Shown here in pieces: positions 9,018-62,778 of a DNA stretch of 64,000 bases. A model generated the notes under the pieces. That model was not told the DNA's origin. It was given only the letters and a program-made list of their open reading frames with translations, and made no database searches. A program made the position numbers and the translations under genes. Source of the DNA: Mycobacterium sp. (GTDB lineage Bacteria; Actinomycetota; Actinomycetes; Mycobacteriales; Mycobacteriaceae); NCBI GenBank assembly GCA_035505695.1, contig DATJQO010000016.1, forward strand, positions 627 through 64,626. Reading direction: 5' to 3'. Within the stretch, counting starts at the first letter, position 1; every line of letters begins with the position of its first letter.

Positions 9018-9167
9018 CTGGCGCAACTGGCGTGACTGGCGCAACTGAGCGTGACCAGGCTGTTTGTGTGACGTGGCCTGGTATGACTGGTCGGCGTGAC
9101 TGCACCTAGTCGCGCCAAGCATTTCCGCAGGTCGGCCGCAGTCACGCTAGTTGCGCCAATCACGCCA
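9018..9167. repeat. iteron-like repeat cluster: 27/28-bp inverted repeat plus direct repeats
   Basis: 9028-9055 (tggcgtgactggcgcaactgagcgtgac) matches the reverse complement of 9141-9167 at 26 of 28 positions. ctggcgcaact is directly repeated at 9018-9028 and 9036-9046. Further GCGTGAC copies start near 9067 and 9093. Confidence 0.75.
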
Positions 9168-10347
9168 GTGGTGGTGGTCGGCGTGGCCGGTCTGGCTGCC
9201 GTAGCGACCAAAATGTTTGCCGGGGAAAGCCCTCGGACTCCGAAACAACCCTGAGCCGCGCAGAGGCACGTTCGATGCTGCGCTGGCTGAATCCCTCGCT
9301 GCGTCCGGCATTCTTTACGTCTCGGGATCTCGCCCGGCCTTCCTGAAGCAGGTAGTCCTCTAGCCATTGCACCGCCTCGGGTGGCTCGTCATCATTGTTG
9401 CGGCTTAATAGGTCCCGTGCGTCGTGATCGCTATAGCCAACCCCACTGGACTCGTGGCACGCCCCGAAGGTCGTCGGGCACTAGCTGATACAGAAGCGAT
9501 GGCGGCTTGGGAGCGAGGTTGTTCTTCACCGACGCCAGCACCCGTTGATCCGCGTTGTCGGGGTCGGTGGCGACGATCATCCCGGCACGTGCCGCGCCGA
9601 CGATGCCGATGGATCCGCCGCCCCGATAGAGGGGATCACCGTTACCTTTATTTAGGTGCCGGAGCAGAAGAATTGAGCATGAGGTACTTTCGGCCAGCGC
9701 CGCCAGGCGCGCCAGTACGCGCCGAACATCTTGATCTTTGTGCGCGTCGGTGCCAGTCGGCAGATAGGCCATCAGCACGTCGATGATGACCAGCCGGGCG
9801 TGCGTCCCCGTGACAAGCGTGCGAAGCTGTTCGACATCGGCCAGTGTGGGCGGCCGCAGGGTGCCCTCGTCGTCGATTGGGACGCCCTGCACTGCAACGA
9901 CTCTGGACACGTCGGCGTTGGCGGCATCTAGCCGAGGTCGGATGGTGTCGGCCAGGCCGTCCTCTGCTGACATCAGGATCACGTCGCCCGGACAGTTGCA
10001 ACGTGTCCCGTCCGGCCATTTGCCGCCGGTACTGACGATTGCGCCGAATGTCAGTGCAAGTGTGGATTTCCCGAGTCCAGGGTCGCCGTCGAGGGTGATT
10101 ACCTTGCCCAGGGGGATCCGGCCGGGCCATAGCCTCTGACTTGCTCTGGTTGTACGGCATCAAGCCTGACGGCGGAGAATCCTAGTCCGTTCGGCTGATC
10201 CGGTGGCTCATACGGTGGTGGAATATCGTCTTCGTAGTGATTGGCGTGCGATGCGCCGTTACGGCTGGAGGGCTGTTCAGCGGCGAACCGCTCGGCAGCC
10301 GCTTTGCCTCGGGCCAACAACTTTTCGTCGGCGGTCACCGTGACCAC
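9160..10347 (-). pseudogene. RepA-like AAA_25/RecA-fold ATPase with C-terminal wHTH, frameshifted
   Basis: Three frames join into one protein. The pieces are VVTVTADEKLL...VQPEQVR, then WPGRIPLGKVITLDGDPGLGKSTLALTF...RVQW, then YSDHDARDLLSRNNDDEPPEAVQWLEDYLLQEGRARSRDVKNAGRSEGFSQRSIERASARLRV. One-nucleotide shifts lie near 10130-10134 and 9436-9446. Confidence 0.7.
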
Positions 10348-10496
10348 AACTCATCGTCGAAATCATCCTTGCGCTCGTAGCAACGGCAGGTAAGAGGCTC
10401 TCGGCAGCCGCACGCGAGCGGCGGTAAGCGGAGACTTGTTTCGCGGCGGCGGCGTAGTTGTGCGCCAACGCTTTCCGTTTTGATATGATCAGCCAT
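10335..10496 (-). CDS. small Cys-rich hypothetical protein (53 aa), below the ORF-track length cut-off
   Basis: ATG at 10496 follows GGAAGGAAGG. The translation is MADHIKTESVGAQLRRRRETSLRLPPLACGCREPLTCRCYERKDDFDDELWSR. Its TGA (10335-10337) overlaps the GTG start region of the ATPase ORF at 10347, which suggests translational coupling. Confidence 0.4.
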   Translation of the reverse strand: MADHIKTESVGAQLRRRRETSLRLPPLACGCREPLTCRCYERKDDFDDELWSR

Positions 10497-10709
10497 TAGT
10501 TGGCCCTTCCTTCCAACGGTTTGAGCAGCGTCGGGTGTTAGCAGCCCGGCGTTGCTGCTTTTGTCAGTGAGTCGATGAGTTGTTTCGGAACAGCAGACGA
10601 ACCCGCTCGCGCTGCCGGGCGGTAAGAGGCGGTGCCGTGGAGACGTTGCGCTTTACGGCTTCTCGGGACTTGGGGTCGAGCTTCCGCAACCACGGAGGCA
10701 GGTCTGCGC

Positions 10710-10928
10710 TCACGCGTCTTGACCTGTGATTGCGGCAGCGTCTTCGCGCAGAATGCGCCAGCGGTTCCCGAACTTGGTTCCACGTAGCAAGCCGGTGCGT
10801 AGCCAGCGGTGCACCGTATAAAGGTGGACCTCGGCTATGGCCGCGACATCCTCCGGAGACAGCGTGCGCTGGATCGGGTCGATGGGGGCAAGAGGGGTTG
10901 CGTGTAGCTTGTTTGATTTACCGGGCAT
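10710..10928 (-). CDS. excisionase-family helix-turn-helix DNA-binding protein (Xis/RDF candidate)
   Basis: 72 aa. The string LSPEDVAAIAEVHLYTVHRWLRTGLLRGTKFGNRWRILREDAAAI matches the MerR-like excisionase HTH pattern. The ORF is intact. Confidence 0.8.
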   Translation of the reverse strand: MPGKSNKLHATPLAPIDPIQRTLSPEDVAAIAEVHLYTVHRWLRTGLLRGTKFGNRWRILREDAAAITGQDA

Positions 10929-10951
10929 TGGGGTGAAATCCCTTCGCGGAT

Positions 10952-11014
10952 AAAAAAGCCGGGTACACCAACGAAAGGGACTCTGGCCCTACGGGTTCGT
11001 TGGCTGCCCGGCTT
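10952..11014 (-). terminator. intrinsic terminator-like hairpin followed by a T-run, between integrase and xis
   Basis: On the minus strand the sequence reads aagccgggcagccaacgaa ... ttcgttggtgtacccggctttttta. It forms a long interrupted stem followed by T6. Confidence 0.6.
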
Positions 11015-11249
11015 CACTTTCCGCTAACACCGCTTCGTACCGCACACGCGGCGGTCCTCAGCTTTCCGCCTTTGGATTACATCGCCGCGCCGTACTAGCG
11101 CCCGTATGAAATTATAAAGCGAGCTTATGCGTCGTCACATTGCGAGCGCCATGCCCGCACCAAAATATGTAGCGCGTGTCGGGCGCGACACGCCGCAACA
11201 AAATCGTGGACCCCGGTAGTGTGGCTCCATCTATCTGTCTGCAACTGCC

Positions 11250-12748
11250 CTATTCGCCGCGCCGCCAGGCGACATCCACATAGTCGGAATCGAACTTGCC
11301 CAGCCCCGGTGGGCACGGCTTAATCGTCACGACGCATAGCTCATCGACGGCCTGAGCGCGCTGCATGGGACTCATGGCCTGCCACACCTCCCAGGCGTTG
11401 GCCCCGGCAGCCACCAGAGCCGCAGCCGGTGACGTACGCGTAGCGTCGGCAAGCTGCCGGTCCACCAAGGCCAGCTTGTTGCCGGTGTCGCGGCTCGACT
11501 TGCCGAACTGCTCCGCGTCGATCTGGTCGTCATTGAACAGGTCGTCAGGTTATCCAGCTTGCGCTGCAAGGCTTCCCGTTGCACCGACAAGGCGTCGATG
11601 TCAGCGCCCCGATTAGCGAGCAGGTCGGCGCGTCGGGCTGCGTCATGCGTTCCAGCACGGTCGCGGTCACATAGTCATCGACGGGTTCACCGGCCCGCAG
11701 GACGTGTGCGTGATCGCGGCAAGCGTAGGCGCGGCTCTTGCGGTTGGTGGCGCGTCCAGCAGCGTTCCCAGGCATCGCGGCCTTCATCCGGCCACTGCAC
11801 TTACCGCAGCGATACAGGTTGGAACCGAGGTACTTTCGCTCATACGAGGTGCATTTAATCCGGGAAGGGTCGGAAAGATACCCGACCAGGCCACGATGCG
11901 TGTCGATGTCAATGAGCGGAGTCCAATTTCCCTGGAACTCGGTCACTTTCCCGGCCTTATCGGTGTGTGTCTTGATCGCGGCATACTTCGGGTTAACCAG
12001 CAGCCGCCGGACCCGCCGACCTGTCCACTCGCCGGACACGGTCACATCCTCGCCGGTGTGGGGGGTTCTTCTGCACCCGCCCTGCCAGAGTCGTCTTGAG
12101 GCCCTGAGCATTCCAGTCACGCGCTACCTGCTGAATGCTCTTGCCGCTCAACACGTCTACAACAGCCTGGCGCACAGCACTCGCCTCCGGCTCCAACGGC
12201 TCACCGGTCATGGTGTATCCGAAAGTCCGGTTGGCCGTCTGCCACTTGCCCTTCTCGGCCTTCTGCCGGTTGGACCGGATGCGACGTTCGCTCATATGCT
12301 CTGACTCCTGCCGTGCGACCGAACCGAGGATGCGGGCCACCATGCGGCCCGCAGAGGTGGACAGGTCCAACTCGCCGCCCTGTACGGTACGGATCGAAAT
12401 CTTCGCGGCTTCGGCGATCTCGATCAAGCGCTCCAAGTCCTTCATGCTGCGGTAGAGCCGGTCGGTGTGCCAGCAGATTAGTGGGTCGATCTCGCCGCGC
12501 TTCATCTCATCGAGCAGCGATTCGAAACCAGGGCGGACCTTGCCGCAGTACGCCGAGATGTCGTTGTCCACCAGGACGGTGATGACCTCCCAGCCCAGCG
12601 CGTCGGCCAGGGCGCGGCAGTCCTCCTGCTACCGCTCCACGCCCAGGCCGTCGCCGCCCCGCCTACGGGTGTCGGCAGCGGCGGTGCCGGGGTCGTTGGA
12701 TATGCGGGCATAGATCGCGGCCCGCCTCGGGGTGTTTGTGCTGTACAT
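11250..12748 (-). pseudogene. large serine recombinase (phage-type integrase), multiply disrupted
   Basis: The N-terminus MYSTNTPRRAAIYARISNDP...GVER is followed by an in-frame TAG at 12629-12631, then QEDCRALADALGWEVITVLVDNDISAY...RLYRSMKDLERLIE, which is the resolvase catalytic domain. Frameshifts lie near 12057-12063 (G-run), 11628-11631 and 11543-11548. The C-terminus ends ...DSDYVDVAWRRGE. Confidence 0.85.
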
Positions 12749-12758
12749 GCCACCCATT

Positions 12759-13861
12759 CTACAGCGCACGACTGTAACGTGCGTTGGCGTACAACATGAT
12801 TCGCTGCCCCCCAGAGGCCAGGCGTTTAGTGTGATACAACCCCATGGCTTTGCCGCCGTCGAAAATCGCGAGGTAGTGATGCGCATGGCCGGCCATGCGG
12901 ATCAGGTCCGTCATGGGCAGCAGAGTGCCGCCACCGGTGCGGCCGCGGCCGGCTGCGGCTTCGAGGTCGGTCAATGTAGTGGTGACGATGACGCTGACGG
13001 GTAGCCCGTTGTGCTGACCCAATTCTCCTGACATCAGCAGGGCGCGCAGGCCGGCGAGCAGACCATCGTGGTTACGCTGACCCTGGCTGCGGCTGTCGCG
13101 CTGCACGGCTGGTTCCGGTGCCGGGCCGTCCACTATGGGCGTCTCGTCGTCAGGGTTGCACATGCCCGGGGCGGCCAGCTTGGCCAGCGCTGCGTCGAAC
13201 GTGGCGCGCAGCTCGGGGTTGAGGTAGCCGGTGATGCGGGACATGCCATCCAATTCCTGCGACCCGATGACGATCCCGCGCCGTCGCGCCCTGTCCTCGT
13301 CGGTGAAATTGCCGTCGGGGTTGAGGCAGTCCATTAACACTTTGCCGTATTTGGTCAGCTCGTCGGGGCAGTAGTGGCGGGCTTTCCGGGCCAGGTCGGC
13401 TTCGGTGGCGTGGCGGGTGAACAGGTCCACATGCTGCGGCACTTGGGCGAAGAAGCTGCGGATCACCCTCACGTGACCTTCGCCGAGTACGCCGTCGCGC
13501 TGGGCGGCTGCCGTCGCTGTCAGCTGAGGGGCCAAGGGTTCACCGGTCAGGGCGCGGCGCGGACCTAGATCTTCGGCGTCGGCGACCGGCGGCTGGCTTC
13601 GGCGGGATTGATCCGTAGCCGGTTGGCCAAGGCGTCGCGCAGTGTGCCGCCGAGCTCCTCTTGGTTGGCCTGCTCGGCGAGTTGATTGATCAACGCATGC
13701 CCCGGTGCCCGCAGCCGGCGAGCCACCCGCTCGAGGCGCTCCAGCGCCCGCAGCCGTTCCGGTGTGGTGAGCACGTCAAACGACAACTCGGACAAGCGCT
13801 CCGCACCGGACTCGAGCACGTCGAAGGCCTCGACCATGTCCTCACGACTGCTCGACCTCAT
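12759..13861 (-). pseudogene. REP13E12 / DUF222 family ORF, 5' two-thirds only, truncated at the insertion and frameshifted
   Basis: The pieces are [31 protein letters not shown]...[12 protein letters not shown] and [41 protein letters not shown]...[12 protein letters not shown], then a foreign tail NARYSRAL and a stop. The HNH domain is missing. A one-nucleotide shift lies near 13583-13586. Confidence 0.8.
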
Positions 13862-13917
13862 GCCTCAGATCGTACGAAGGGTCACCGACAAGAAATGCTG
13901 CATGGTGGCATTGCTGG

Positions 13918-14562
13918 TCACCCCTGACGCCGCGGCCGCGGACGGTCACCGGCAAACCCCCGCACCACGTGCGCCCGCACGAACTCCGCGACTACCTCAG
14001 GATCGTCTATGTCCAGGGTCGATGAGGGCGTGCTGAATAGCGAAAACAGGATCCGGGCAAACCACTCACCGGCGGCCTCGACGTCGAGGTTCTTGCGGAC
14101 CTCGCCGGTGAGCTTGGCCGCGGACAGGTAGGGCGCGAAGAATTCTACGCACTCGCGCAGCAGCACGGCGGCATCCTTGGTCAGCAGCAGGCTGAGCGCA
14201 TCTTCGTCGAAATACCATCCTGAGGCGATGGCTTGGCGTGCTTGGGTCACGAACACCGCGGCGCGGCTGAACTTTTCCTCCAGCGACCCGCCCCGGTCCA
14301 TCGCTTTGGACATGTCACGGTAAAACTGCTCGGACGCATGCTCGGCGCACGCCTCAAGGACGGCGCCCTTGTCGCTGAAGTACTCATAGACGGTACTCCG
14401 GGAGACGTTGGCCGCCTTGGCGATATCCACTATCGTCGTCTTCTGGAGCCCCTGTCGGCAGAAGCATGCATACGCCGCCTCGACGATCAGCTCGCGGGTG
14501 TCGGTCGTCGGCTGAGATGGCTCGGTCGGCTCGGTCCTCAATCTCTCACCCACTCGGCGCAA
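13918..14562 (-). CDS. TetR-family transcriptional regulator
   Basis: The N-terminal HTH is TTIVDIAKAANVSRSTVYEYFSDKGAV, followed by a helical ligand-binding domain. The annotated start overlaps the upstream gene by 17 nt, so the true start may be slightly downstream. Confidence 0.88.
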   Translation of the reverse strand: MRRVGERLRTEPTEPSQPTTDTRELIVEAAYACFCRQGLQKTTIVDIAKAANVSRSTVYEYFSDKGAVLEACAEHASEQFYRDMSKAMDRGGSLEEKFSRAAVFVTQARQAIASGWYFDEDALSLLLTKDAAVLLRECVEFFAPYLSAAKLTGEVRKNLDVEAAGEWFARILFSLFSTPSSTLDIDDPEVVAEFVRAHVVRGFAGDRPRPRRQG

Positions 14563-15595
14563 GAATCAGCCCGCTGGTGGGCACGCCGGTCCCAGAGGTG
14601 ACCAAGACGTGCTTGAAGTTGTCGACCTGGTTGTAGGACGTGCCGCGTATCTGGCGCACACCTTCGGTAATGCCGTTCATCCCATGGATGTACGCCTCGC
14701 CGAGCAGGCCGCCGTTGGTATTGATCGGCAGCTCCCCGCCCAGCGACAGCCGTTCCACGGTAGCGAAGTCCTTGGCTTCCCCGCGGCCGCAGAAACCGAG
14801 TTCTTCGAGTTGGGTGAAGAAGAATGGCGTGAAATGGTCATAGATGAAAACGGTTTGGATGTCCTGCGGCTCGAGGCCCGAGTCACGCCACAGCCGCGCG
14901 GCGACCACCCCCATCTCAGGCAGGCCGGTGATCTCCTCGCGGTAGTAACTGGTCATCATCTCGCCGTCGCGAGCCGCACCCTGGGCGGCGGCGGCGATCA
15001 CCGCCGGCGGCTGGCGCAGGTCCCTGGCGCGTTCCGCGCTGGTCACCACCAGCGCGACCCCGCCGTCACTTTCCTGGCAGCAATCCAGCAATCTCAGCAC
15101 GGGTGCGTCGATCCAGCGGGAATTCTGATGGTCTTGCAACGTGATCGGGCGCTGGTAGAACCAGGCATCGGGATTGCTGGCGGCGTGGGTGTGGTCGACG
15201 ACGGCGATCCGGCCGAAGTCCTCGTTGGTCACCCCATGGGTCGACATGTAACGCTGCGCGTGCAACGCGACCCACGCTGCGGGAGTGAGCAATCCGAACG
15301 GCGCATAATGCGCCATGAACGCCGGCAGCTTCTTGACCATCGCTTCGGGCCCCGCCCAGTCGGTGAGGAAACGCACGCAATACCCATTGGTGGTCAAGAT
15401 GTTGATGAACAGATTCGGCGACCCCTGCTTGTTGGCGTAGTCGCGGTCGTGGTGCACCGGCATGAAGTCCCGCGACGCGATCGCGCCCGCGACGATCATC
15501 GTGGTGGTGATCGGGATCTCGAGTGCGGTGACCTCGTCCCCGATTTCGATGTCGGCCCACTTCCGTGTCGTGGTGCGAGCCTTAGCGCTCGTCAT
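14546..15595 (-). pseudogene. in-frame fusion of a truncated MaoC-like hot-dog hydratase (first ~90 aa) to an N-terminally truncated SCP-x/Ltp-type thiolase
   Basis: Residues 1-90 (…VAGAIASRDFMPVHHDRDYANKQGSPNLFINILTTNGYCVRFLTDWAGPEAMVKKL) are a MaoC core that stops mid-domain. From residue 91 (PAFMAHYAPFGLLTPAAWVALHAQRYM…LLDCCQESDGGVALVV…NTNGGLLGEAYIHGMNG) the sequence is the distal two-thirds of a thiolase-like protein. The junction is near 15315-15330. Confidence 0.65.
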
Positions 15596-16011
15596 CGTTT
15601 CCCTTCCGTCGGCCGGAATTGTTGCAGCACAAGGTCTTCAGAGCCGGCTCCGTCGAACGTCTGGTAGCAGACCTCCACGGGCATGCCGACCGTGACATCG
15701 GCCGGGTCGATATCACACAGGTTCGAAACCAGCCGCACGCCTTCATCGAGCTGCACCAGTACGACGATGTAGGGATAGTCGAAGAACGGGAACCGGGGTT
15801 CCAGCGGCATCACGTAGCTGTACACCGTGCCGCGACCCGACGATTCGATCGCATCCCACTCCAGCGAACGACAGTTCGGGCACATGGGCCGAGGCGGCTG
15901 GCGCAACGCTGCGCATCCGGTGCAGCGCTGGATCAGGAGTTTGTGCTCGCGCAGCCCGCTCCAGAAGAATTCGGTGTCCGGGCCGATCGCCGGCGCCCGT
16001 CGGGTCGCCAT
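15592..16011 (-). CDS. DUF35 Zn-ribbon/OB-fold protein (thiolase partner)
   Basis: 139 aa. CTGCAALRQPPRPMCPNCRS forms a four-Cys ribbon, followed by an OB-fold region. ATGA overlaps occur at both ends, with the upstream hydratase at 16011 and the downstream fusion ORF at 15592-15595. Confidence 0.85.
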   Translation of the reverse strand: MATRRAPAIGPDTEFFWSGLREHKLLIQRCTGCAALRQPPRPMCPNCRSLEWDAIESSGRGTVYSYVMPLEPRFPFFDYPYIVVLVQLDEGVRLVSNLCDIDPADVTVGMPVEVCYQTFDGAGSEDLVLQQFRPTEGKR

Positions 16012-16558
16012 CAGCGTTCCGGCCTGAATCGCAGCACCCGGAATCGCTGCCGCCCCAACACCTCACCGTTCTGATCGATGTAGGTGATCACCCAGGTCAG
16101 AAAGTAGCCGGTCCCCAGCGCGGTCTTCTTTTCATCGGAGACGTCCTCGAACACCGACGTTGCGCTGATGACATCACCTAGCCGGGGATAGCGTTCGATT
16201 TCGAACTCCGAGTTGGTTGCCACCGTGCTGGTATACTCGGCCTCGTCGAGGAATGCCGTTGGATTGCCGTCGATTTCGACTGGCGCGCCGCCGCGTCCCT
16301 GATGCCCTCCAGTTTGGGTGGCGGCATCACCCAGGTCTGCAACATGACCGGCGGCGACACGATCCCACCGAACCGCGACGAAGCAGCGAACTCCGGATCC
16401 AGGTACACCGGGTTCATGTCGTCGAGCGCATGCGCCCAATGCCGAATCATCGGCTCGTTGACCGGATCCGGTGCTACCGAAGGCTTTCCGGTTCCGCCGG
16501 TGGGCTGGCCGATGAGCCCGCGAAGCTTGTCGCGAAGTGCCGTTTGCGAGTCGGTCAC
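16011..16558 (-). pseudogene. MaoC-like/FAS1-type dehydratase N-terminal-domain protein, frameshifted
   Basis: GTG at 16558 overlaps the P450 stop (GTGA). VTDSQTALRDKLRGLIGQPTGG...NEPMIRHWAHALDDMNPVYLDPEFAASSRFGGIVSPPVMLQTWVMPPPKLEG is in one frame. ...APVEIDGNPTAFLDEAEYTSTVATNSEFEIERYPRLGDVISATSVFEDVSDEKKTALGTGYFLTW... is in another. The shift is near 16290-16315. Confidence 0.7.
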
Positions 16559-17752
16559 TGAGTTGATCTCCAATCTCTTCCGGGCCTGAGCTGCACGGGT
16601 ATGCGCTTGACCCCGGGCACCATGGTGGCCCGCATCCGGTCCACCTCGCCGGCTAATTCCAAATTGGGAAAGCGACGCAGTAGCTCGTCGAACATGACCG
16701 AAGCCTCCAGGCGCGCCAACTGGGCACCGACACATGAATGCTCACCGCAGCCAAAAGCGATGTGCGGGTTGTGGCGGGTGACCTTGAACTCTTCAGAGTC
16801 GCAACCAAAGACGTCCTCGTCCCGGTTGGCCGACCCGTAAAGCATGACTAACGTGTCACCTTCGGCGATCAGCTGACCGCGTATCTCGACATCGGTCGTC
16901 GCGGTGCGGGCCATATGGACCACCGGGCTGTTCCAGCGCAACATCTCTTCGACGCCGTGCGGGATCAGCGACCGATCCTCGACCACCAGGCGGCATTGAT
17001 CGGGGTGAGCGATCAATGCCAAGGTGCCCAACGCAATCAAGTTGCGAGTGGTTTCGTTGCCGGCAACCAGCAGCAGAAAGGCGAAATTGAGCAGGTCTTC
17101 ATCGGTGAGGCGATCTCCGTCGATCTCCGCGCCGGCCGGCACAGACAGCAAATCGTCGCTCGCATCGTTGCGTTTGGCGGCGATCAGCTTTCGGAAGTAC
17201 TCGTAGAGCTCGCCGATGGCCACGAAGGGGTCCAGTTCGATCTCCGGGTCCGCGGTTCCGGTGGCCGCGTGCGACCAGGCCCGGAACTGCTCCCAGTCGT
17301 CCGGCGGCGCACCGATCAGCTCGGCGATCATTCGGGTGGGCAGCGGAGCGGCAATCTCTTCGGCGAACTCGTGGACGGAGTCCGCTGCTATGCCGTCCAG
17401 GATGACCCGAACGACCTGGCGGATCTTGGGCTCGAGCACGGCCACTCGTCGCCGGGTAAACCCCGAGTTCATCAGCTTGCGCAGCTGCCGGTGCCGCGGC
17501 GGGTCGGTGAAGATGAGGCTGCCTTGCTGCACCGGGTTCGGCATCCCCGGGTCGGGGATATTGACGCCCCTTGGTGGAGGTGAAAATGGCCGGATTACTG
17601 GACACGAAGCGGATGTCCTCGTACTTCAGCAGCGCCCAGAAGCCGGTGACGTCGTTCCAGCACACCGGAGATGCGGCGCGCAGCTCTCGGTAAGCCGGGT
17701 AGGGATCACCCGCGTAAAAGTCCGGGGAATGCAGTGGAAAAGTGGTCTGCAC
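16555..17752 (-). pseudogene. cytochrome P450, single frameshift
   Basis: The N-terminus MQTTFPLHSPDFYAGDPYPAYRELRAASPVCWNDVTGFWALLKYEDIRFVSSNPAIFTSTKG continues in another frame as VNIPDPGMPNPVQQGSLIFTDPPRHRQLRKL... . This frame contains AGNETT and the heme loop FGCGEHSCVGAQLA. The shift is in a C4/G4 run at 17566-17569. Confidence 0.85.
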
Positions 17753-17938: not shown

Positions 17939-19435
17939 GTGACCGACGTTCGGGTGAGGAAGCAGATGGCCGAGCTACAAGCCCCGGTTCCCCTTGTCGA
18001 CACTTACCAGCTCTACATCGACGGCCGATGGGTTGAACCGGAGGACGGCCGCTACGACGACATCGACCCGGCCACCGAGCAGATCATCGCCGCCGCGCCG
18101 GGCGCGAGCGTCGCGCAGGTCAGTGCGGCGATCGCCGCCGCGCGTCGCGCCTTCGACAGTGGGCCGTGGGGGACCACGAGCCCGCAGGACCGGGCCGGCT
18201 GCGTCAATCAGCTCGGCGAAGCCCTGAACAAGCACGCCGACGAATTCTTCGCGCTGTCGCAGACGGAGTGGGGCTGCGTTTCGAATGAACGCACGATGCA
18301 AATCGACGGTGCCGGATACATGTCCATGCATGCCGCCCAGCTCGCCACGAAGTTGACGGACGAGCCGGTCACTGGAGTCGGCGCCGGGACGACGTTGCTG
18401 CGACGCGAGCCGCTTGGTGTCGTGTCGATTCTGACGCCGTGGAACTTCCCGCACTGCCTCAACGTCATGAAGGTGAACAACGCGCTGGCTGCAGGGAATA
18501 CCGTCGTGCTCAAGCCGTCGCCGCTGACACCGCTGGCCGGGCTGGCGCTCGCCCGCGTCATCGACGAGGAGACCGATATTCCGCCCGGCGTCGTCAATGT
18601 GGTCACGCCATCGAGCATCGAGGCCGCCAAGCTACTCACCACCGATCCGCGCATCGACATGGTCAGCTTCACCGCCAGCTCGGCCGTCGGCTGCGAGGTG
18701 ATGCGGGCCGCGGGCGATGCCATGAAGCGGCTCTTGCTGGAGTGCGGCGGGAAGTCGGCAAGCATCGTCCTCGACGATGCGCAACTTACCGACGACATGC
18801 TGCAGCAGATGCTGTTCAATTGCTGCTCACTACATGCCGGTCAGGCGTGCATCTTGCACAGCCGGCTGCTGCTTCCCGATTCGTTGCACGACAAGGTCGT
18901 CGACCGGATCGTCGCGTTGGCCCGTGAGATCAAGGTTGGCGGCCCCAAAGACCCTGCCGCGCAAATGGGTCCGCTGATCAGCGCGGCACAGCGCGAGCGT
19001 GTGCAGGCGCATGTGGACGGCGCGGTCAACGACGGAGCGAAGCTGGTGACCGGCGGCGGCCGTCCGGCCGGCTTGGATGCCGGGTTCTACTTCGAACCGA
19101 CCATTCTCACCGACGTCGACCCCGACTCGACGATCGCGCAGGAGGAAGTGTTCGGCCCGGTGCTGTCGGTGCTGCGCTACCACGACGACAACGATGCGGT
19201 AGCGATCGCGAACAACTCGCGCTACGGACTCTCCGGTGCCGTGTGGGGTGCCGACGTGGACCGCGCCGTCGGGGTCGCCCGGCGCATCCGCACCGGCCAG
19301 GTCGCCATCAACGGGGTCGGACCGGGGGATGCGCCGTTCGGAGGCTTCAAGTTGAGCGGGTTCGGCCGGGAGAGCGGCGGAATTGGCGCACTACACCAGT
19401 ACATGGAGGTGCAGGCCATCGGCGTGCCCGCGTAA
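17939..19435 (+). CDS. NAD(P)-dependent aldehyde dehydrogenase
   Basis: 498 aa. Motifs are the catalytic Cys in LLLECGGKSA, the Glu motif EEVFGPV, and GFKLSGFGRE near the C-terminus. Confidence 0.92.
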   Translation: MTDVRVRKQMAELQAPVPLVDTYQLYIDGRWVEPEDGRYDDIDPATEQIIAAAPGASVAQVSAAIAAARRAFDSGPWGTTSPQDRAGCVNQLGEALNKHADEFFALSQTEWGCVSNERTMQIDGAGYMSMHAAQLATKLTDEPVTGVGAGTTLLRREPLGVVSILTPWNFPHCLNVMKVNNALAAGNTVVLKPSPLTPLAGLALARVIDEETDIPPGVVNVVTPSSIEAAKLLTTDPRIDMVSFTASSAVGCEVMRAAGDAMKRLLLECGGKSASIVLDDAQLTDDMLQQMLFNCCSLHAGQACILHSRLLLPDSLHDKVVDRIVALAREIKVGGPKDPAAQMGPLISAAQRERVQAHVDGAVNDGAKLVTGGGRPAGLDAGFYFEPTILTDVDPDSTIAQEEVFGPVLSVLRYHDDNDAVAIANNSRYGLSGAVWGADVDRAVGVARRIRTGQVAINGVGPGDAPFGGFKLSGFGRESGGIGALHQYMEVQAIGVPA

Positions 19436-19489
19436 GGCGCGCCCCGTGAGCCTGTTGTAAGCGGGCCGTCACATGACAGGCTGCTCGAC

Positions 19490-20398
19490 ATGGTCATCGA
19501 GATCGCCCGCCCCAAACTCGAAGGCAACGTCGCAGTCGGCGAAGACCGCCAGATCGGCTTCGCCGAGTTCGGCGACCCGCAGGGCCGGGCGTTTTTCTGG
19601 CTGCATGGCACCCCCGGCGCCCGGCGCCAGATTCCCACCGAAGCCCGCCTGTACGCGGAAAACCACAAGATCCGGCTGATCGGCCTGGACCGCCCCGGTA
19701 TCGGCTCGTCGACACCCCATCGCTACGAGAACATCCGGGCGTTCGGTGACGACTTGCGCACCATCGCGGACACGCTGGGCATCGACAAGATGGCCGTCAT
19801 CGGGCTGTCCGGCGGCGGTCCGTACGCGCTCGCGTCCGCCGCGGTGTTGCCGGATCGGGTGGTGGCGGCCGGCGTACTCGGTGGCGTCGCCCCCTTCCTC
19901 GGCGAGGAAGGAATCACCAGCGGTCTGATGAACCTCGGCAAGCGGGCGGCGCCACTGCTGCGGCTGGGTGGCGACCCGCTGCGGATCGGCGCGAGCTTGG
20001 TGATCCGGATGATTCGTCCGGTCGCGAACCCCGCGCTGTATCTGTATGCCGCGGTATCGCCGGAAGCCGACCGGCGCCTGCTGACCCGGCCCGAGTTCGC
20101 CGCCATGTTCCTCGACGACCTGCTCAACGGCAGCCGCAAGCAACTCGCTGCCCCGTTCAATGACATCATCCTGTTCACCCAGGACTGGGGATTCCGGCTG
20201 GACGAAGTCAAAGTCCCGGTGCGGTGGTGGCACGGGGACAGCGACCACATCGTTCCGTTTGAACACGGTGAGCACGTCGTGTCCTTGCTGCCCGACGGCG
20301 AGCTGTTGGTGCTGCCCGGCGAAAGCCACCTCGCCGGACTGGGCCGCGGCGAGGAGATCCTGTCCACCCTGATGAAGATTTGGGACGAACGAGACTGA
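19490..20398 (+). CDS. alpha/beta-fold hydrolase (Rv1191-like by position)
   Basis: 302 aa. The HGTPG oxyanion region and the nucleophile elbow GLSGGG are present. Its position immediately upstream of fadD36 matches the remembered H37Rv order. Confidence 0.88.
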   Translation: MVIEIARPKLEGNVAVGEDRQIGFAEFGDPQGRAFFWLHGTPGARRQIPTEARLYAENHKIRLIGLDRPGIGSSTPHRYENIRAFGDDLRTIADTLGIDKMAVIGLSGGGPYALASAAVLPDRVVAAGVLGGVAPFLGEEGITSGLMNLGKRAAPLLRLGGDPLRIGASLVIRMIRPVANPALYLYAAVSPEADRRLLTRPEFAAMFLDDLLNGSRKQLAAPFNDIILFTQDWGFRLDEVKVPVRWWHGDSDHIVPFEHGEHVVSLLPDGELLVLPGESHLAGLGRGEEILSTLMKIWDERD

Positions 20399-21847: not shown

Positions 21848-21914
21848 GCCGCGGCCCAGCTCGCGCGGTAAAACACAGACCGGCTTTAAGACCCGGCAGT
21901 AACGCCCACCCCGA

Positions 21915-22337
21915 CTAGGACTCGGCAGGCGCTTGCTGAGCGGCTTCATCCTTGATCTTGGGAACCATCTCCGGCGCGTACACGAAGACCGCGGACTCGA
22001 CCTCCCACTCAGCCTGCTTCGCGTCCATCGACGTCGTATCGGTAAGCAACGTCATCAGAGATTTGGCCCTGGCCATTGGATCGGCTGCCGTACGTACTTG
22101 ATTGGCCAACCACCGACCCTCGGTGGTCAGGCGGCAGTCGTTGAAATCGGCCGTGTGGATCATGTTGTTCTGACCCAGCAAGTGGATGTATTGCTCGTCT
22201 TCGGCTGTCAAGTTGCAGTTCGCCGATGCCGGTGGTGCCGCCAGCACGACTTGGCCCAGCATTGCGGCCATCAGTGCACCGCCGGCTACCCACACCGACC
22301 AGCCAGGCCGGTGCACGCTCGAACGTTCAGTTGCCAT
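21915..22337 (-). CDS. DUF732-type secreted protein
   Basis: I take the start at the internal ATG (22337). The protein has a signal-like N-terminus (WVAGGALMAAMLGQVVLAAPPASA) and a mature domain with Cys...Cys and the DEQYIHLL motif typical of mycobacterial DUF732. Confidence 0.7.
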   Translation of the reverse strand: MATERSSVHRPGWSVWVAGGALMAAMLGQVVLAAPPASANCNLTAEDEQYIHLLGQNNMIHTADFNDCRLTTEGRWLANQVRTAADPMARAKSLMTLLTDTTSMDAKQAEWEVESAVFVYAPEMVPKIKDEAAQQAPAES

Positions 22338-22763
22338 CCGCAGCCCCCTTTGCGTGGAATCTTGCTGCTTTCCAGAGCGCCAAACATAGATACCGCAAAC
22401 GGCCAGTGCCCGAATAGGCGAGCGCCGCAAACAACGAGTTAACAACGAGTACTCCAAGCTCGGCAACCGGTCGGCGGCCTCGGCCTTTCTCTACCGCATA
22501 GGCAGGGCCCGACCAGACAGCCGAGTTCGATCCTGCCAACGTCTGCCCCGCGCCCAACCTCTGATGACTATCGCGCTGTGCCTGCGCGGGATCTATGCCG
22601 ATGACGCCCTTGCGACGACCCGACATCCCCGCCAATGGCTGAGCATCCGGCAGCCCTCATCTGGACACGCAGGATGTTGCCAGCTGTCCCGTCCAGCGAG
22701 ACCGCGAACCTTCACCTACCGTCGTAACCGTGTATCGATGCAGCCGGACAGCCAGCGGCCTCC

Positions 22764-49373: not shown

Positions 49374-49917
49374 TCAGCCGGAGTTCTTGGCCGTCCGCTC
49401 CAGTCCGTCACCGCCCTGTACCGCCCCTGCCTCGTCGTTTTGGGAGTTCAGATTGGTCAGCAGCGCGCGCCGATCGTCCAGTTCGTGCCGCAAATATTCG
49501 CAAGTCACAACCTCGCCGACGGCTAGCCGCAGCGCAGCGAGCTCGCAGAGCCAGATACTCGGTGTCGGCCTTGGTTTGCGCGGCACGATGGCGATCCTGT
49601 TCGAGCGCCACCCGGTCTCGGTTCTCCTGGCGGTTCTGCGCCAGCAAAATCAGCGGCGCCGCATAGGCCGCCTGGGTGGAGAAAGCCAAATTGAGCAAGA
49701 TTAAGGGGTATGGGTCAAAGCGGGCCTCGGCCGCGAACAGATTCACCCCAATCCGCACCACCACCACGATTGTCTGCACCAGCAGGTAGCGGCCGGTGCC
49801 GAAGAAACGCGCGATCGACTCGGTGACCTGGCCGACGGCCTCGGGGTCCAGGCGTGGTGAGTATCTGCGCGACGTCCGCGGGGTGTACAGCCGTCGTGGC
49901 GCCGTCGATTTGCTCAC
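49374..49917 (-). pseudogene. DUF1003 membrane protein (Rv1231c-like), frameshifted
   Basis: GTG at 49917 overlaps the upstream stop (GTGA). ...FDPYPLILLNLAFSTQAAYAAPLILLAQNRQENRDRVALEQDRHRAAQTKADTEYLA continues in another frame as ELAALRLAVGEVVTCEYLRHELDDRRALL... . The shift is near 49546-49551. Confidence 0.75.
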
Positions 49918-51077
49918 ACGGGTCCTCCCGACTCTTCCAGCCGGCCGGCAGCGTCGAGTTTTTGCACGTCGACTCGCCGGTCGTGCGGCAGCAAGTGATC
50001 GAGAAGGTCGTCTACGGTTACCGCTCCCAACAGGTGAATTCTGGTCGTCGACCACCGGTCCGCACACCAGGTTGTAAGCGGCCAGATAGCGAGTCACCGC
50101 GGCGAGCGGCGTCTCCGGCTTCAGGGTGAGCAGGTCACTGTCGACGATGCCACCGACCAGTTCGGCCGGCGCTTCGCAGAGCAGCCGCTGCAGCGGCACG
50201 CAACCCAGGTAGCGACCAGTGGGGGTGGCCGTCGGTGGGCGCGCCACGAACACCATGGACGACAGCTCGGCGGTGAGGTCGGAGTCGCGGGCGTGGGCCA
50301 GCGCTTCGGCAACCTACGTGTCGGGAGTCAGCACCACCGGATCCGAGGTCATCAGGCCGCCCGCTGTGTCCGGGGAATGCGTCAGCAGCCGACGCACCGG
50401 TTCCGAGTCGTCGGGGTCCACCCTGGTCAGCAGCATCTCGGAGTCGGTTGGATTCAGCACAGCGAGCAGGTCGGCGACGTCGCCGGGATCCATTTCTTCG
50501 GGCACGTCGGCCGATCGTTCGGGGCCCAGCTGCGAGAGCACATCGGCCTGATCCAGCTCGGGCAGCTCTTGCAGAACGTCGGCCAGCCGGGGGGTCAAGC
50601 CGTGGACATTGTGCCAGTCCACGACGTGCACCGGGCCGCGCCGGCCCAGCCGGCGCTGGCTGCGGACGGCGACTCTGGTCACCGTCCAGTCTCGGGTGCG
50701 GGTCTTTTCGATTCCCAGGTCGGTGACGACGTCGACGCCGCCAGCTCCGGCAGCGCGGGATCGTTGACCTTGACCTGGGTGTCGAGCACCTGGCCGATCG
50801 CCAGTACCTCGCCCGGCTGCTGTTCGAAGTGGCGTAGCGACACGCTGCCGGTGCTCAGTGTCACCGCCTCGGGCTCGATCGCGCCGACCCGCAACATCGG
50901 GATGAAGATGCTGCGTCGGGTGGCTAATTCCACGACCGGTCCCAGCACGCGTGGTTGCTGGCGCACGATGCTGATGCTGATCACGACATCACGGACCCGC
51001 TCCATGGACTCCCCGAGTGGACCCAACACCAACATCCGGGCGAGCCGGGCGGCGTACACCCTGTTGACCGATGCCAT
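49914..51077 (-). pseudogene. MgtE-N/CBS-domain protein (Rv1232c-like), two frameshifts and one in-frame TAG
   Basis: The first piece is MASVNRVYAARLARMLVLGPLGESMERVRDVV... . After a shift near 50736-50742 comes ...VDVVTDLGIEKTRTRDWTVTRVAVRSQ...LLAVLNPTDSEMLL.... An in-frame TAG lies at 50314-50316, followed by VAEALAHARD...RYLAAYNLVCGPVVDDQN. After a shift near 50046-50050 comes HLLGAVTVDDLLDHLLP. Confidence 0.8.
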
Positions 51078-51140
51078 GAAAGGGAGCCTCTAGGCAGCCA
51101 TCGGGATGCGCAGCGGTATTGGCCTCGCGAAGAAATGTCG

Positions 51141-52451: not shown

Positions 52452-52467
52452 GGCGTGCAGGACATAA

Positions 52468-54819
<2,352 letters not shown>

Positions 54820-54830
<11 letters not shown>

Positions 54831-55659: not shown

Positions 55660-55663
55660 CTCA

Positions 55664-57432: not shown

Positions 57433-57437
57433 CTGCG

Positions 57438-58538: not shown

Positions 58539-58723
58539 CTCCGATCGCAGTGCACATCTGGCCGGGCGGTCATCAATGCTACGCGTGCTTACTTACCGAA
58601 GCGCAACGATCCGGTGTGCACAAAGCCCTGGTAAAGGACCGGAGATCGACGGCCCGCAGGGGTGCGCTAGTTTCGAGCCGAGACACGAATCGGCATGAAC
58701 TTCTCCACAAGGAGTAAATCGAC

Positions 58724-59713: not shown

Positions 59714-59763
59714 CGTGGCGATCGCAAGCGCGGTGGAGCCGGGCGTAGCGGGTCGCCACTTCA

Positions 59764-59780
59764 GACGCGCTCGGCGCGTC
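59764..59780 (+). terminator. GC hairpin downstream of mdh (gacgcgc-tcg-gcgcgtc), no U-tract
   Basis: It has a perfect 7-bp stem and a 3-nt loop, 50 nt after the mdh stop. Confidence 0.35.
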
Positions 59781-59841
59781 GCCAGCTGAAATTCACCATT
59801 TCCATTAGTTCTACTAACGGGTAGTAAGTACTCTGGGGCGG

Positions 59842-61041
59842 GTGTCCGAATTGCTTGAATCGATACAGACCCGCGCCGAGTCGGCCGTGATCACCGACGC
59901 GGAGATTTTCGACGCACATGTAGGCGGCAAGCTTTCGGTAGGTTTGACGGCTCGGCTGGACACCCAACGTTCCTTGTCTATCGCCTACACGCCGGGTGTG
60001 GCGCAGGTGAGTCGTGCGATCGCCGCCAATCACACCCAAGCCGCCAGTTATACCTGGGCCAATCGCCTGGTGGCGGTCGTCAGCGATGGCAGCGCGGTTC
60101 TGGGCCTTGGCGACATCGGACCGGCGGCGTCGCTGCCGGTGATGGAGGGCAAGTGCGCCCTCTTCAAGGCATGTGGCGGACTCAACGCCATCCCGATCGT
60201 GCTCGACACCAAGGACCCCGACGAGATCGTCGAAACCCTGGTGCGACTGCGGCCCACATTCGGCGCCGTGAACCTCGAGGACATCTCCGCGCCGCGCTGC
60301 TTTGAGATCGAACGACGCGTCATCGAAGCAATGGACTGCCCGGTGATGCACGACGACCAGCACGGCACGGCCATCGTGGTGCTCGCGGCGCTGATGGGCG
60401 CCAGCAAGTTGCTTGGCCGTGACATGACGTCGCTGAAGGTGGCGGTTTCCGGCGCCGGGGCCGCCGGTGTCGCTTGCTCGAATCTCCTTCTGGCGATGGG
60501 TGCTTCAGACGTCACTGTGCTCGATTCGCGCGGAATTCTGCATCCCTTGCGCGACGACATGAACAGTGTCAAGGCCGAGCTGGCACGCCGCAGCAACCCC
60601 CGCGGCCTGGCAGGGGGCATCGCGGAAGCGCTCGAGGGGGCAGACGTGTTCCTCGGCTTGTCGGCGGGCGTGGTGCCTGAAGAGCTGATCGCCACCATGG
60701 CGCCCAACGGGATCGTGTTTGCGCTGTCCAACCCCGATCCGGAGATCCATCCCCAGGTCGCGGCGAAGTACGCGGCCGTGGTGGCCACCGGCCGTAGCGA
60801 CTTCTGCAACCAGATCAATAATGTGCTGGCTTTTCCCGGCGTGTTCCGGGGTGCGCTGGACGCCGGCGCACGCCGGATCACCGAGAAAATGATGGTCGCC
60901 GCGGCCGAGGCCATCTTCTCCGTCGTCAGTGCCGACCTCGCAGCCGACCGAATTGTCCCCAGCCCGCTGGATCTTCGTGTCGGGGATGCAGTCGCCACGG
61001 CGGTGGCCCTGGCCGCAGAGTCCTCTGACACCGCGGGGTGA
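59842..61041 (+). CDS. NAD(P)-dependent malic enzyme (short, MaeB-N-type)
   Basis: 399 aa with YTPGVAQVSRAIA, GLGDIGPAASLPVMEGKCALFK and the dinucleotide fold VSGAGAAGVAC. Confidence 0.9.
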   Translation: MSELLESIQTRAESAVITDAEIFDAHVGGKLSVGLTARLDTQRSLSIAYTPGVAQVSRAIAANHTQAASYTWANRLVAVVSDGSAVLGLGDIGPAASLPVMEGKCALFKACGGLNAIPIVLDTKDPDEIVETLVRLRPTFGAVNLEDISAPRCFEIERRVIEAMDCPVMHDDQHGTAIVVLAALMGASKLLGRDMTSLKVAVSGAGAAGVACSNLLLAMGASDVTVLDSRGILHPLRDDMNSVKAELARRSNPRGLAGGIAEALEGADVFLGLSAGVVPEELIATMAPNGIVFALSNPDPEIHPQVAAKYAAVVATGRSDFCNQINNVLAFPGVFRGALDAGARRITEKMMVAAAEAIFSVVSADLAADRIVPSPLDLRVGDAVATAVALAAESSDTAG

Positions 61042-61907
61042 GAGCCGGCCGGCTGGTGGCGCCGCTGGTCGCCGCCGTACTCGCTGCGGCTGGTTGCGCC
61101 ACCGACTCGGGCGACCGTCGTGCTGGTCGGGAACTAGTGGTCGGCTCCCGCGCTGACTCCGAATCGGCGCTGCTGGCCGACGTCTATGTTGCTGCGCTTG
61201 CGTCATACGGTTTTCCAGCGCGCGCCGAGACCGCCGCCGACCCGATGGCGCAAATGGACACGGGCGCGTTCACAGTTGTCCCCGCCTTCACCGGCCGTAC
61301 ATTGCAAGCCTTGCAGCCGGGCGCGGCGGCGATGTCCGACACTGCGGTCTACCGTGCGATGGTGGCTGCGTTGCCAGAGGGCATCACTGCGGGCGACTAC
61401 ACGACGGCTGCCGAAGACAAACCCGTGCTGCTGGTGACTGGGTCCACCGCCAAGGCGTGGGGCGGTAGTGATGTCAGCGCAGAATTGAGCTCGTTGCCGA
61501 AGCACTGCGACGGCCTGATCGTCGGAACTGTCACCGGTCAACCGGCACCGTCGACCGTCGGCACCTGCCGGCTTCCCGCCGCGCGCGAGCTCCCGGACGA
61601 CGCGACGATGTTTGCTGCGGTGCGGGACGGTCAGCTGACGGCAGGGTGGACGACGACCGCCGACCCCGGCATTCCCGCCGACCTGGTTTCGCTGGCCGAC
61701 GGCAAACCCGCACTGGTACGGGCGGAGAACGTGGTGCCGCTGTATCGACGCAACGCACTGAGCGATCGGCAACTGCTGGCGATCAACGAAGTGGCCGGCG
61801 TGCTGGACACCACGGCACTGGCCGAGATGCGCCGCCAAGTGGCCGGCGGAGCCAACCCGCAGGCGGTGGCATCCGGATGGTTGACAGAACACCCGCTGGG
61901 GCGTTGA
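61038..61907 (+). CDS. lpqZ: lipoprotein, glycine-betaine/OpuAC-like substrate-binding fold
   Basis: It has a signal peptide with lipobox LAAAGC and is 289 aa. It overlaps the malic enzyme stop by 4 nt. The position next to the SDR and kgd matches Rv1244. Confidence 0.75.
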   Translation: MRAGRLVAPLVAAVLAAAGCATDSGDRRAGRELVVGSRADSESALLADVYVAALASYGFPARAETAADPMAQMDTGAFTVVPAFTGRTLQALQPGAAAMSDTAVYRAMVAALPEGITAGDYTTAAEDKPVLLVTGSTAKAWGGSDVSAELSSLPKHCDGLIVGTVTGQPAPSTVGTCRLPAARELPDDATMFAAVRDGQLTAGWTTTADPGIPADLVSLADGKPALVRAENVVPLYRRNALSDRQLLAINEVAGVLDTTALAEMRRQVAGGANPQAVASGWLTEHPLGR

Positions 61908-61931
61908 GGTGGGCCGACGAAACCCCGGAGA

Positions 61932-62778
61932 TCAGCGTCTGTGCATCAACCGCAGCACAGCGTGCTTGGCGCGGCTCATGACAGGACCGGGCAGCAGCTG
62001 CTGATAACTCGAAGCCGTCAGCCGCACTAGCAGGTCCATTGCCTTGACGTCCGATCCGACCAGGACCCGCGACTTTGTTCTTGCGGACCACCTCGAGGAT
62101 GATCCGAGCGGCTTTTTGCGGGCTGGTGCCGGCTTGTTGCGCCTCGAACTGATTGGCCAGCTCGTCCTGGTCCAGCCCTTCGGCGAAGGTGGCATTGCGG
62201 GCGAACCCCGTCTTAACAGCGCCCGGGTGCACCGTGGTCACCCGCACCGGGTGGCCGGCGGCCAGCATCTGCTGGCGCAGCGCCTCGGTGAAGCGCCGCA
62301 CGGCGAACTTGGCGGACACGTATGCCGCCTGCCCGGCCGCCGCAAACGGGCCTAGGGCGCTCGAGATGTTGATGATGTGGCCGTCGCCGGAAGCGATCGG
62401 GTGGGGAGGAAAGCCTTGGTGCCGTTGACCCCAAAAGTCGACGTCCATCACCCGTTCCATGTCCTTGAACCGGCTCTCTTCGATGGATCCGATGAACGTG
62501 ATGCCGGCGTTGTTGTAGACCTGGTTGACCATGCCGAAGTGCTCGTTGACCGCGTCGGCGTAGGCCAGGAAGGCCTCCCGCTCGGTCACGTCGAGCCGAT
62601 CCGCTTGACCGGTGCACCGATTGCCTTCAGCTGCTCCCCGGTTTCGGCCAGGCCCTCGATGTCGACGTCACTGATCGCCAGCTTGGCTCCAGCACGACCG
62701 AGCTCGACGGCCAGCGCCCGGTCCTATGCCGGAACCGGCACCCGTCACCACGGCAACCTTGCCGGCGAACTCATGCAT
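61932..62778 (-). pseudogene. short-chain dehydrogenase/reductase paralogue, multiply frameshifted
   Basis: MHEFAGKVAVVTGAGSGIG is followed by shifts near 62720, 62604 and 62070-62078. A locally scrambled segment lies at about 62400-62435. When re-phased, the protein is colinear with the intact neighbour (…DVTEREAFLAYADAVNEHFGMVNQVYNNAGI…SAKFAVRRFTEALRQ…RVLVGSDVKAMDLLVRLT…). Confidence 0.8.

Follow-up and report, generated by a model that had tools for sequence, protein, structure and literature searches.

Why does a short stretch of a mycobacterial chromosome carry so many broken genes next to intact housekeeping loci, and do they mark the onset of genome reduction or a handful of separate losses? 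The question is raised by the window analyzed here, a stretch of 64,000 nucleotides from an uncultured environmental Mycobacterium (contig DATJQO010000016.1 of GenBank assembly GCA_035505695.1, forward-strand positions 627 to 64,626), which represents a slow-growing-type segment with a GC content of 65.7%. An initial annotation, made from the sequence alone, listed nine disrupted open reading frames (ORFs) and read them as the signature of reductive evolution in a host-restricted lineage. The comparison with intact orthologues and with near-identical contigs from other metagenomes documents that the disruptions are genuine. Ten ancestral genes have been lost, probably in about four separate events. 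The affected units are a serine-integrase mobile element together with the DUF222 gene that it split, a catabolic operon, a MgtE-N/CBS and DUF1003 gene pair, and one of two tandem SDR paralogues. The phenomenon is of a known kind. In this uncultured soil Mycobacterium, gene decay has recently affected four functional units, has become fixed and is still in progress.

Lesions and their recurrence in other assemblies

Lesions were mapped by tblastn of intact orthologues and by local DNA alignments against the window. The references were M. palustre (L019) for the catabolic cluster, M. seoulense (L081) for the MgtE-N/CBS and DUF1003 genes, M. paraseoulense (L094) for the second SDR paralogue, a DUF222 orthologue (L031) and an intact integrase homologue of 499 amino acids (P0241). 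All nine ORFs listed by the initial annotation proved to be disrupted, with the lesions where it had placed them to within a few nucleotides, and its mixture of indels in and outside of runs, TAG codons and an in-frame deletion was recovered. Its count has to be amended in two respects: the MaoC::thiolase fusion ORF is the remnant of two destroyed genes, which makes ten ancestral genes, and several genes carry additional lesions. About 21 lesions result in total; besides 1-nt indels and two TAG codons, there are deletions of 576 bp and about 141 bp.

Decayed genes that add up to about 9 kb contain all of the lesions, and the other 47 kb or so of coding sequence appeared free of them. The sparing of housekeeping genes was likewise borne out. 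Between 40.8 and 61.1 kb each gene aligns to its M. seoulense equivalent as one full-length segment, and dapD, dapE and their neighbors up to about 30 kb are collinear with the relatives; the genes from 30 to 40.8 kb were judged intact by Pfam domain matches to their ORFs alone. Intact orthologues of the broken genes prevail among the relatives (over 90% of the loci), with 66 of 69 copies for the P450, 74 of 77 for the MaoC-N hydratase and 70 of 74 for the thiolase. The exceptions are mostly metagenome-assembled genomes (MAGs) with several frameshifts. A few of the relatives' MAGs (L076, L044, L017, L049 and L057, all MFD isolates) are frameshifted in many unrelated genes including dapD and dapE, a pattern suggestive of faulty assembly instead of biology and unlike the clustered lesions of the window.

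Sequencing or assembly artefacts that disguise genes intact in the organism would be the most trivial explanation of the disrupted ORFs, and two of the roughly 21 lesions indeed lie in short homopolymer runs (C4 and G6), but stop substitutions and long deletions are among the remaining lesions. Further evidence comes from exact-protein look-ups, which retrieved contigs with 99.85–100% identity to the window from seven other assemblies, namely, ENA ERZ27256600 (68.9 kb), ERZ27256505 and ERZ27256510, Logan SRR8879130, SRR8879131 and SRR8879134, and JGI 3300032829. These contigs jointly span every lesion, and the ORFs broken in the window are broken in them as well. Scattered single-nucleotide polymorphisms (SNPs) distinguish them from the window and from one another, and they therefore originate from different read sets. 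Contig names of the k141 type suggest short-read MEGAHIT assemblies, as far as naming can tell, which also argues against artefacts. The JGI contig (99.84% identity) crosses the same fusion junction as the window, and its sample (Lox_Sample_1.3, IMG 3300032829) is soil from the Loxahatchee refuge in the Everglades (PMC8067648).

The independent assemblies thus keep the reading frames broken instead of restoring them, and the claim that the lesions are not homopolymer errors holds for the stops and deletions as well as for the indels. Artefacts are accordingly an extremely unlikely explanation; the pseudogenes are genuine and fixed in the sampled population. All lesions of the window are shared by other contigs with one exception, the missing base at position 11543 of the integrase gene, which is present in two other contigs (L090 and L091). 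The indel that the initial annotation had noted at 11545 is hence a real 1-nt deletion, located at 11543, but restricted to the strain of the window. Conversely, a 1-nt deletion at 49791 in the DUF1003 gene is restricted to ERZ27256510 (L085). The remaining indel differences between strains are intergenic (51088–51089 and 59770–59778).

The evidence for the lesions consists of assemblies rather than raw reads, and the source is documented for one sample. Exact-protein look-ups with the aldehyde dehydrogenase and the fusion ORF of the window returned no match; the window strain has private SNPs in both. The SRR and ERZ accessions could not be traced in the literature, an exact scan of the JGI metagenomes for the deletion junction was equally without a match, and a protein scan of the latter retrieved relatives at 90% identity or less, with no intermediate relative to date the lesions. 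The approach shows that a pseudogene call from a metagenome can be validated without reads, based on near-identical contigs from other samples and on the pattern of variation between strains.

Four units of gene loss

The first unit is a mobile element with a serine integrase, at least 12.8 kb in length (1..12785, minus strand), which comprises backbone and cargo genes and runs off the start of the window. Backbone genes of two intact elements (L095 and L096) match the window at 12781–11255, 10695–10585, 6123–5401, 5324–5055, 919–677 and 241–2. These matches extend well beyond the integrase, thus indicating that the whole region represents one integrated element, which in turn explains that the relatives' loci show no match to positions 1–12780. 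The large serine integrase pseudogene (11250..12754, minus strand; Pfam Resolvase and Recombinase) contains a TAG codon in place of Gln (12629–12631), frameshifts in the G6 run at 12060–12065 and at about 11600, and the strain-specific deletion at 11543. After correction of the frame, 497 amino acids align with 88% identity to the intact homologue P0241 and cover 96–98% of phage serine integrases. Intact homologues with 82–88% identity are located at the edges of mobile elements in other metagenome contigs.

A small intact HTH_17 gene of the excisionase/MerR-like type (10710..10928, minus strand; PF12728) follows, as it does in L095 and L096. The adjacent RepA-like AAA_25 ATPase (9160..10347, minus strand) is a pseudogene that has to be read in three frames, with frameshifts at about 10130 and 9435; its frame-corrected product covers 78–84% of phage primase/helicase-type proteins. 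Just downstream of this pseudogene, imperfect inverted repeats of 21–28 nt are present at 9019–9046 and 9139–9169, with the motifs GGCGCAACT and GGCGTGACT, which may represent an origin or iteron-like site of the element. The cargo includes an EamA-like transporter (1822–2718), a HAMP adenylate cyclase (3306–4841) and a cyclase/NB-ARC-type ATPase of 891 amino acids (6232–8907), so that two cargo proteins contain adenylate-cyclase domains. In ERZ27256600 (L090, about 19690–19770) the sequence diverges sharply from window positions 6247–6328 over its final 80 nt before the contig ends; the point of divergence coincides with the 3' end of the 891-amino-acid gene and suggests a strain-variable junction inside the element. 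A homologue of a 117-amino-acid backbone gene of L095 lies at about 313–650 on the minus strand, in two frames and with its middle missing; it may be a further pseudogene, and the similarity is weak (38–59%).

The DUF222 gene of the REP13E12 type (12759..13861, minus strand) forms the edge of this unit. Both of its fragments match the Pfam DUF222 domain and were aligned by tblastn with L031. It contains a frameshift at about 13586 and ends exactly at the edge of the element with residue 362 of 453, thereby lacking the HNH part (residues 363–453). Nothing above noise corresponds to this HNH half in the window, and it presumably lies beyond the window start. DUF222 also adjoins the TetR gene in the relatives L031 and L076 and was therefore ancestral at this site. 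In the window, DUF222 residues 1–362 abut the integrase, while in L095 residues 352–453 abut a homologous integrase in the opposite orientation. These complementary halves indicate that the same point of DUF222, the codons for MLYAK, is the target. The recurrence of the insertion site is based on two loci, with the distal end of the element outside the window. The element is a serine-integrase integrative element inserted in a DUF222 ORF. It would have entered the chromosomal gene site-specifically, thereby splitting it, and would subsequently have lost its integrase and its RepA-like ATPase via frameshifts and a stop codon, a loss that would leave it no longer mobile.

This arrangement is reminiscent of phiRv1 of M. 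tuberculosis, in which a large serine integrase is located directly beside a truncated, two-piece DUF222/REP13E12 ORF. The two pieces are Rv1588c and Rv1587c beside Rv1586c, and phiRv1 is integrated in a REP13E12 repeat. The adjacency of Rv1587c, a partial REP13E12 protein, and Rv1586c, the phiRv1 integrase, has been reported (PMC1931498). The likeness is one of gene arrangement. In contrast to phiRv1, the element of the window has no recognized phage structural genes and its backbone consists of the HTH_17 gene, the RepA-like ATPase, small genes and cargo; moreover, its integrase and RepA are dead. In L095, L096 and the window, none of the called genes, many of which are small and without any Pfam match, was recognized as coding for a capsid, terminase or protease domain. 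The two loci point to a family of serine-integrase elements that recurrently targets one DUF222/REP13E12 site outside the M. tuberculosis complex.

The second unit is a catabolic operon, in which TetR, thiolase, MaoC, DUF35, MaoC-N and P450 genes are contiguous or overlapping on one strand in the relatives. All of its remnants in the window are encoded on the minus strand. The ORF of the TetR regulator is intact (13918..14562). The MaoC::thiolase ORF (14546..15595) is an in-frame fusion that stays open over 349 codons. It is the product of a 576-bp deletion with its junction at 15320–15326, which joins residues 1–90 of 152 of the MaoC protein to residues 131–389 of 389 (259 residues) of the thiolase-fold protein. 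The fusion is thereby deprived of about 130 residues at the N-terminus of the aldolase, and its hot-dog fold is 62 residues short. A gene for a ChsH2-C-type zinc-ribbon and OB-fold protein (DUF35; 15592..16011; Pfam zf-ChsH2 and OB_ChsH2_C) is intact and aligns as a single tblastn segment. The ChsH2-N-like MaoC-N hydratase (16011..16573) has lost one nucleotide at about 16296, outside any run, and the cytochrome P450 (16555..17752) has gained an extra C in the C4 run at 17566–17569.

The intact orthologues of M. palustre provide insights into the former function of this operon. The thiolase-fold protein matches the lipid-transfer protein 6ok1_A of the PDB (E 6e-174), and the MaoC protein matches ChsH1/ChsH2 (4wnb_B and 4w78_B). 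Judged by these matches, the ancestral operon is an igr-like ChsH1/ChsH2/Ltp2-type hydratase and retro-aldolase module. The module (MaoC pair, DUF35 and thiolase-fold aldolase) is complete in the relatives; three of its four parts are broken in the window. The operon of the relatives resembles the ChsH1-ChsH2-Ltp2/Cyp125 igr operon of M. tuberculosis in the presence of Ltp2- and ChsH1/ChsH2-like proteins, the DUF35 zinc-ribbon/OB domain and a P450. It differs from the latter in that two genes, MaoC-N and DUF35, take the place of ChsH2, in that no FadE28/29 genes are adjacent, and in its flanking genes for the TetR regulator, an aldehyde dehydrogenase, a hydrolase and a CoA ligase.

The aldehyde dehydrogenase gene (17939..19435, plus strand) adjoins the dead operon with an intact ORF. 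The protein differs at four of the 218 sites that are invariant in 76 relatives, and one of these changes, G246A, affects the FTGS..G motif. Each of the four population SNPs of this gene is nonsynonymous, with G246A representing the allele of the window. The dehydrogenase is thus probably drifting and, as part of the dead pathway, may be on course to decay next. The proposed scenario is an inactivation of the ChsH1/ChsH2/Ltp2-like operon with its added P450, after which the remaining members would have decayed or drifted because the pathway had become useless.

The third unit consists of the pseudogenes for a MgtE-N/CBS protein (49920..51077, minus strand, based on tblastn alignment with M. 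seoulense) and a DUF1003 membrane protein (49374..49917, minus strand). In the former, the frame is shifted at about 50739 and 50030, 47 codons are deleted at about 50590 as well as a further single codon, and TAG replaces a Ser codon (50314–50316); the latter has a frameshift at about 49547. Orthologues of MgtE-N/CBS are widespread, and nearly all of the 120 closest homologues have a length of 435–436 amino acids. The two genes overlap by 4 nt in M. seoulense, and both genes as well as both SDR paralogues are intact in M. seoulense and M. paraseoulense. We propose that the two overlapping genes were both lost, which would make this widely conserved pair dispensable in at least one natural lineage. 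In comparison with the window, L085 exhibits four SNPs and its 1-nt deletion within 90 nt of the DUF1003 gene (49702–49791), far denser than elsewhere, and this cluster could be due to local recombination, mis-assembly or neutral decay.

The fourth unit is the second of two tandem SDR paralogues (SDR2; 61935..62778, minus strand), whose orthologue in M. paraseoulense is intact with 283 amino acids. Two frameshifts, at about 62720 and 62605, compensate each other, two codons are missing at about 62420, and the frame is shifted once more at about 62078. The retained tandem copy (SDR1; 62851..63684, minus strand) is intact with 275–277 amino acids. The two paralogues share 77% nucleotide identity, and L094 has two intact tandem SDRs. 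The decay would hence have affected the redundant copy.

Selection and age of inactivation

Variation among the strains agrees with a neutral decay of the broken genes. The intact genes exhibit 12 SNPs at synonymous sites (1.5 per kb) and 12 at nonsynonymous sites (0.54 per kb), and the population pN/pS is about 0.25–0.35, or about 0.25 without the aldehyde dehydrogenase. The pseudogenes (about 9.15 kb) contain 12 SNPs and two indels, which corresponds to 1.3 SNPs per kb, although the counts are small. Every strain-variable indel is located either in a pseudogene (11543 and 49791) or between genes. The pseudogenes thus evolve without purifying selection, with a SNP density at the synonymous level.

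The same conclusion emerges from private changes, defined as residues of the window that differ at sites invariant in 47–120 relatives. Their proportion is about 11 of 190 (~5.8%) for MgtE-N/CBS and 8 of 159 (5.0%) for the P450, for which the highest value in any relative is 1.9%. The thiolase part of the fusion has 3 of 152 (2.0%), TetR 2 of 77 (2.6%) and the aldehyde dehydrogenase 1.8%. No private change was found in the hydrolase (0 of 151), fadD (0 of 214) and dapD (0 of 186). The values of the window for P450, MgtE-N, TetR and aldehyde dehydrogenase are equalled by no relative.

The ratio of nonsynonymous to synonymous substitutions (dN/dS), which the initial annotation had named as a means to set disrupted apart from intact genes, does not separate them. 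In comparison with the relatives, the pseudogenes have a pairwise dN/dS of 0.08–0.16 at a dS of about 0.6, the same as functional orthologues among the relatives, and the intact genes are not raised either (omega 0.09–0.20, compared to 0.12–0.20 among the relatives themselves; five to six genes). Since the ratio of the pseudogenes is at the functional level, they were under selection for nearly all of this divergence, and it is low because inactivation was recent; the excess of changes at otherwise invariant residues amounts to no more than 2–6%. The excess dN of about 0.02 places the inactivation at a few percent of the divergence. The inactivation is roughly ten times as old as the synonymous diversity of the population (0.0015), which fits the fixation of the lesions. 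After the first hit in each unit, selection would have been relaxed and neutral indels, stops and deletions would have accumulated. The decay would thus be recent relative to the split from the sequenced relatives and still running within the population.

Some of the disrupted genes might nevertheless still be functional, either as split or fused proteins or by frameshifting at homopolymer runs, and the best candidates are the P450 and the MaoC::thiolase fusion. P450, MaoC-N and DUF1003 have one lesion each, the fusion ORF is open throughout, and the pairwise dN/dS is still low. Yet the low ratio is accounted for by the recent inactivation; the P450 exhibits the larger excess at invariant residues of the two candidates, the fusion is devoid of substantial parts of both ancestral folds, and DUF1003 has acquired its further strain-specific deletion in L085. 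Retained function is thus very unlikely. The loss of function and the order of hits within each unit are what we infer from the lesions themselves.

Separate losses or genome-wide reduction

Integrase and RepA-like ATPase belong to one element, the insertion of which also cut DUF222; a further four genes form part of a single operon, and two more make up the gene pair. The disruptions hence represent about four independent events instead of nine. Counted by loci, 8 of 52 chromosomal genes (15%) are broken, or 11–12 of about 65 if the element is included. Counted by independent units, about four of roughly 35 are broken, which is only modestly unusual.

The alternative is a genome-wide reductive evolution of a lineage that turned host-restricted, perhaps with a soil protist as host, and that would harbor 15–30% pseudogenes as in M. 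ulcerans, M. lepraemurium and M. leprae. It is supported by the local density of about 15% of the chromosomal loci, by the loss of widely conserved genes such as MgtE-N/CBS, and by a GC content and a GC content at third codon positions (GC3) in the lower quartile of the relatives. M. lepraemurium, with 1,139 pseudogenes among 3,821 genes and a GC content of 68.99%, likewise shows little shift toward AT and few insertion sequence (IS) copies (PMC5646247), so the absence of these features here is compatible with an early stage of reduction. But the lesions are concentrated in four functional units, including a mobile element, and one matching contig stems from a wetland soil metagenome. Intact genes do not exceed the dN/dS observed among the relatives, the population pN/pS is unremarkable, and a repeat search within the window detected no IS copies or repeat expansion, with the SDR paralogues as the sole repeat. 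Furthermore, ERZ27256600 extends 9.7 kb past the window end, and none of its four additional genes is broken. We therefore regard genome-wide reduction in a host-restricted lineage as unlikely.

The phylogenetic affiliation argues in the same direction. The initial annotation had pointed to pseudogene-rich relatives of the M. avium complex (MAC), with M. lepraemurium as an example, without assigning a species. The closest relatives are Mycobacterium sp. 852002-51057, M. palustre, M. nebraskense, M. seoulense and M. paraseoulense, with 88–91% amino-acid identity. For the aldehyde dehydrogenase, the best matches in the genome collection are Mycobacterium sp. 852002-51057, M. palustre, M. nebraskense and M. 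scrofulaceum (86–90%), and no match in this collection is closer than 90%. The best named matches of two further proteins are other species, with about 76% identity for a pseudogene and 90–91%. The MAC members M. colombiense and M. arosiense score 80–81% for the aldehyde dehydrogenase, and the complex is no closer than the relatives named. The GC content of the window is in the lower part of, but within, the range of the relatives (63.5–71.9%, median 68.1%), and GC3 is no outlier. Relatives of the M. palustre, M. seoulense and M. nebraskense types, a soil source, intact genes without raised dN/dS, the lack of IS copies and a GC content within the range of the relatives thus leave a host-restricted lineage of the M. 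lepraemurium kind without support.

M. lepraemurium, M. ulcerans and M. leprae share with the window the mixture of frameshifts, stops and deletions in accessory genes, including P450 and SDR genes, and the sparing of core metabolism. They differ in being host-restricted pathogens with 30–45% pseudogenes genome-wide, while the stretch known here amounts to 64–75 kb. The window further differs from them in its one wetland-soil source, in its relatives of the M. palustre and M. seoulense types and in intact genes without relaxed selection, and from M. lepraemurium in its lower GC content. The ordinary pseudogenes of free-living prokaryotes, failed transfers and decaying paralogues, provide a second comparison. 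According to PMC5646247, which cites Liu et al. (2004), pseudogenes of prokaryotes commonly belong to P450 and SDR families. Within the bounds of that summary, the mobile-element genes, the P450, the SDR and its redundant tandem arrangement agree with this pattern. The loss of the conserved single-copy MgtE-N/CBS and DUF1003 pair and the local density above the usual level do not.

Several points weigh against piecemeal loss. About 75 kb of the genome were examined, a span on which piecemeal loss and genome-wide decay are not separable, and a few percent of pseudogenes are expected in free-living mycobacteria, compared to which the local density is high. All samples may share the ecosystem of the one with a documented source. 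The loss of function is deduced from sequence, and the fusion ORF and the genes with a single lesion could yield protein fragments. A further scenario would be a wetland-soil Mycobacterium in early genome reduction, for example after a shift into a soil protist or another narrow niche. The pseudogenes fixed in conserved single-copy genes and the strain-specific lesions would then reflect continuing decay, in an environmental counterpart of the path taken by M. ulcerans and M. lepraemurium. We consider this scenario unlikely; if the high local density held genome-wide, the window would document an environmental mycobacterium undergoing reduction. About four separate losses probably explain the ten inactivated genes.

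One lineage-specific stretch of about 810 bp without a counterpart in the relatives is located between fadD and the MFS gene (21850–22664). It harbors an ORF of 140 amino acids (21915–22337, minus strand) with a signal-peptide-like start, no Pfam match and no homologue in the relatives' loci compared; a relic of a decayed gene was set aside in favor of a small gene. Rfam and tRNA scans of the window gave no match. The gene order from 22.7 to 64 kb, based on Pfam and the gene list of M. seoulense, is MFS, dapD, dapE, LOG, fadD6, folP2, gpgS, tagA, glgA, glgC, sigE, rseA, htrA, tatB, mrp, lpqY-sugABC, corA, mdh and kgd, which we take to correspond to the Rv1200–Rv1248c region of the M. tuberculosis map. 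Most of the housekeeping proteins are 77–93% identical to those of M. seoulense, with a lower value of 67% for the DUF4190 protein.

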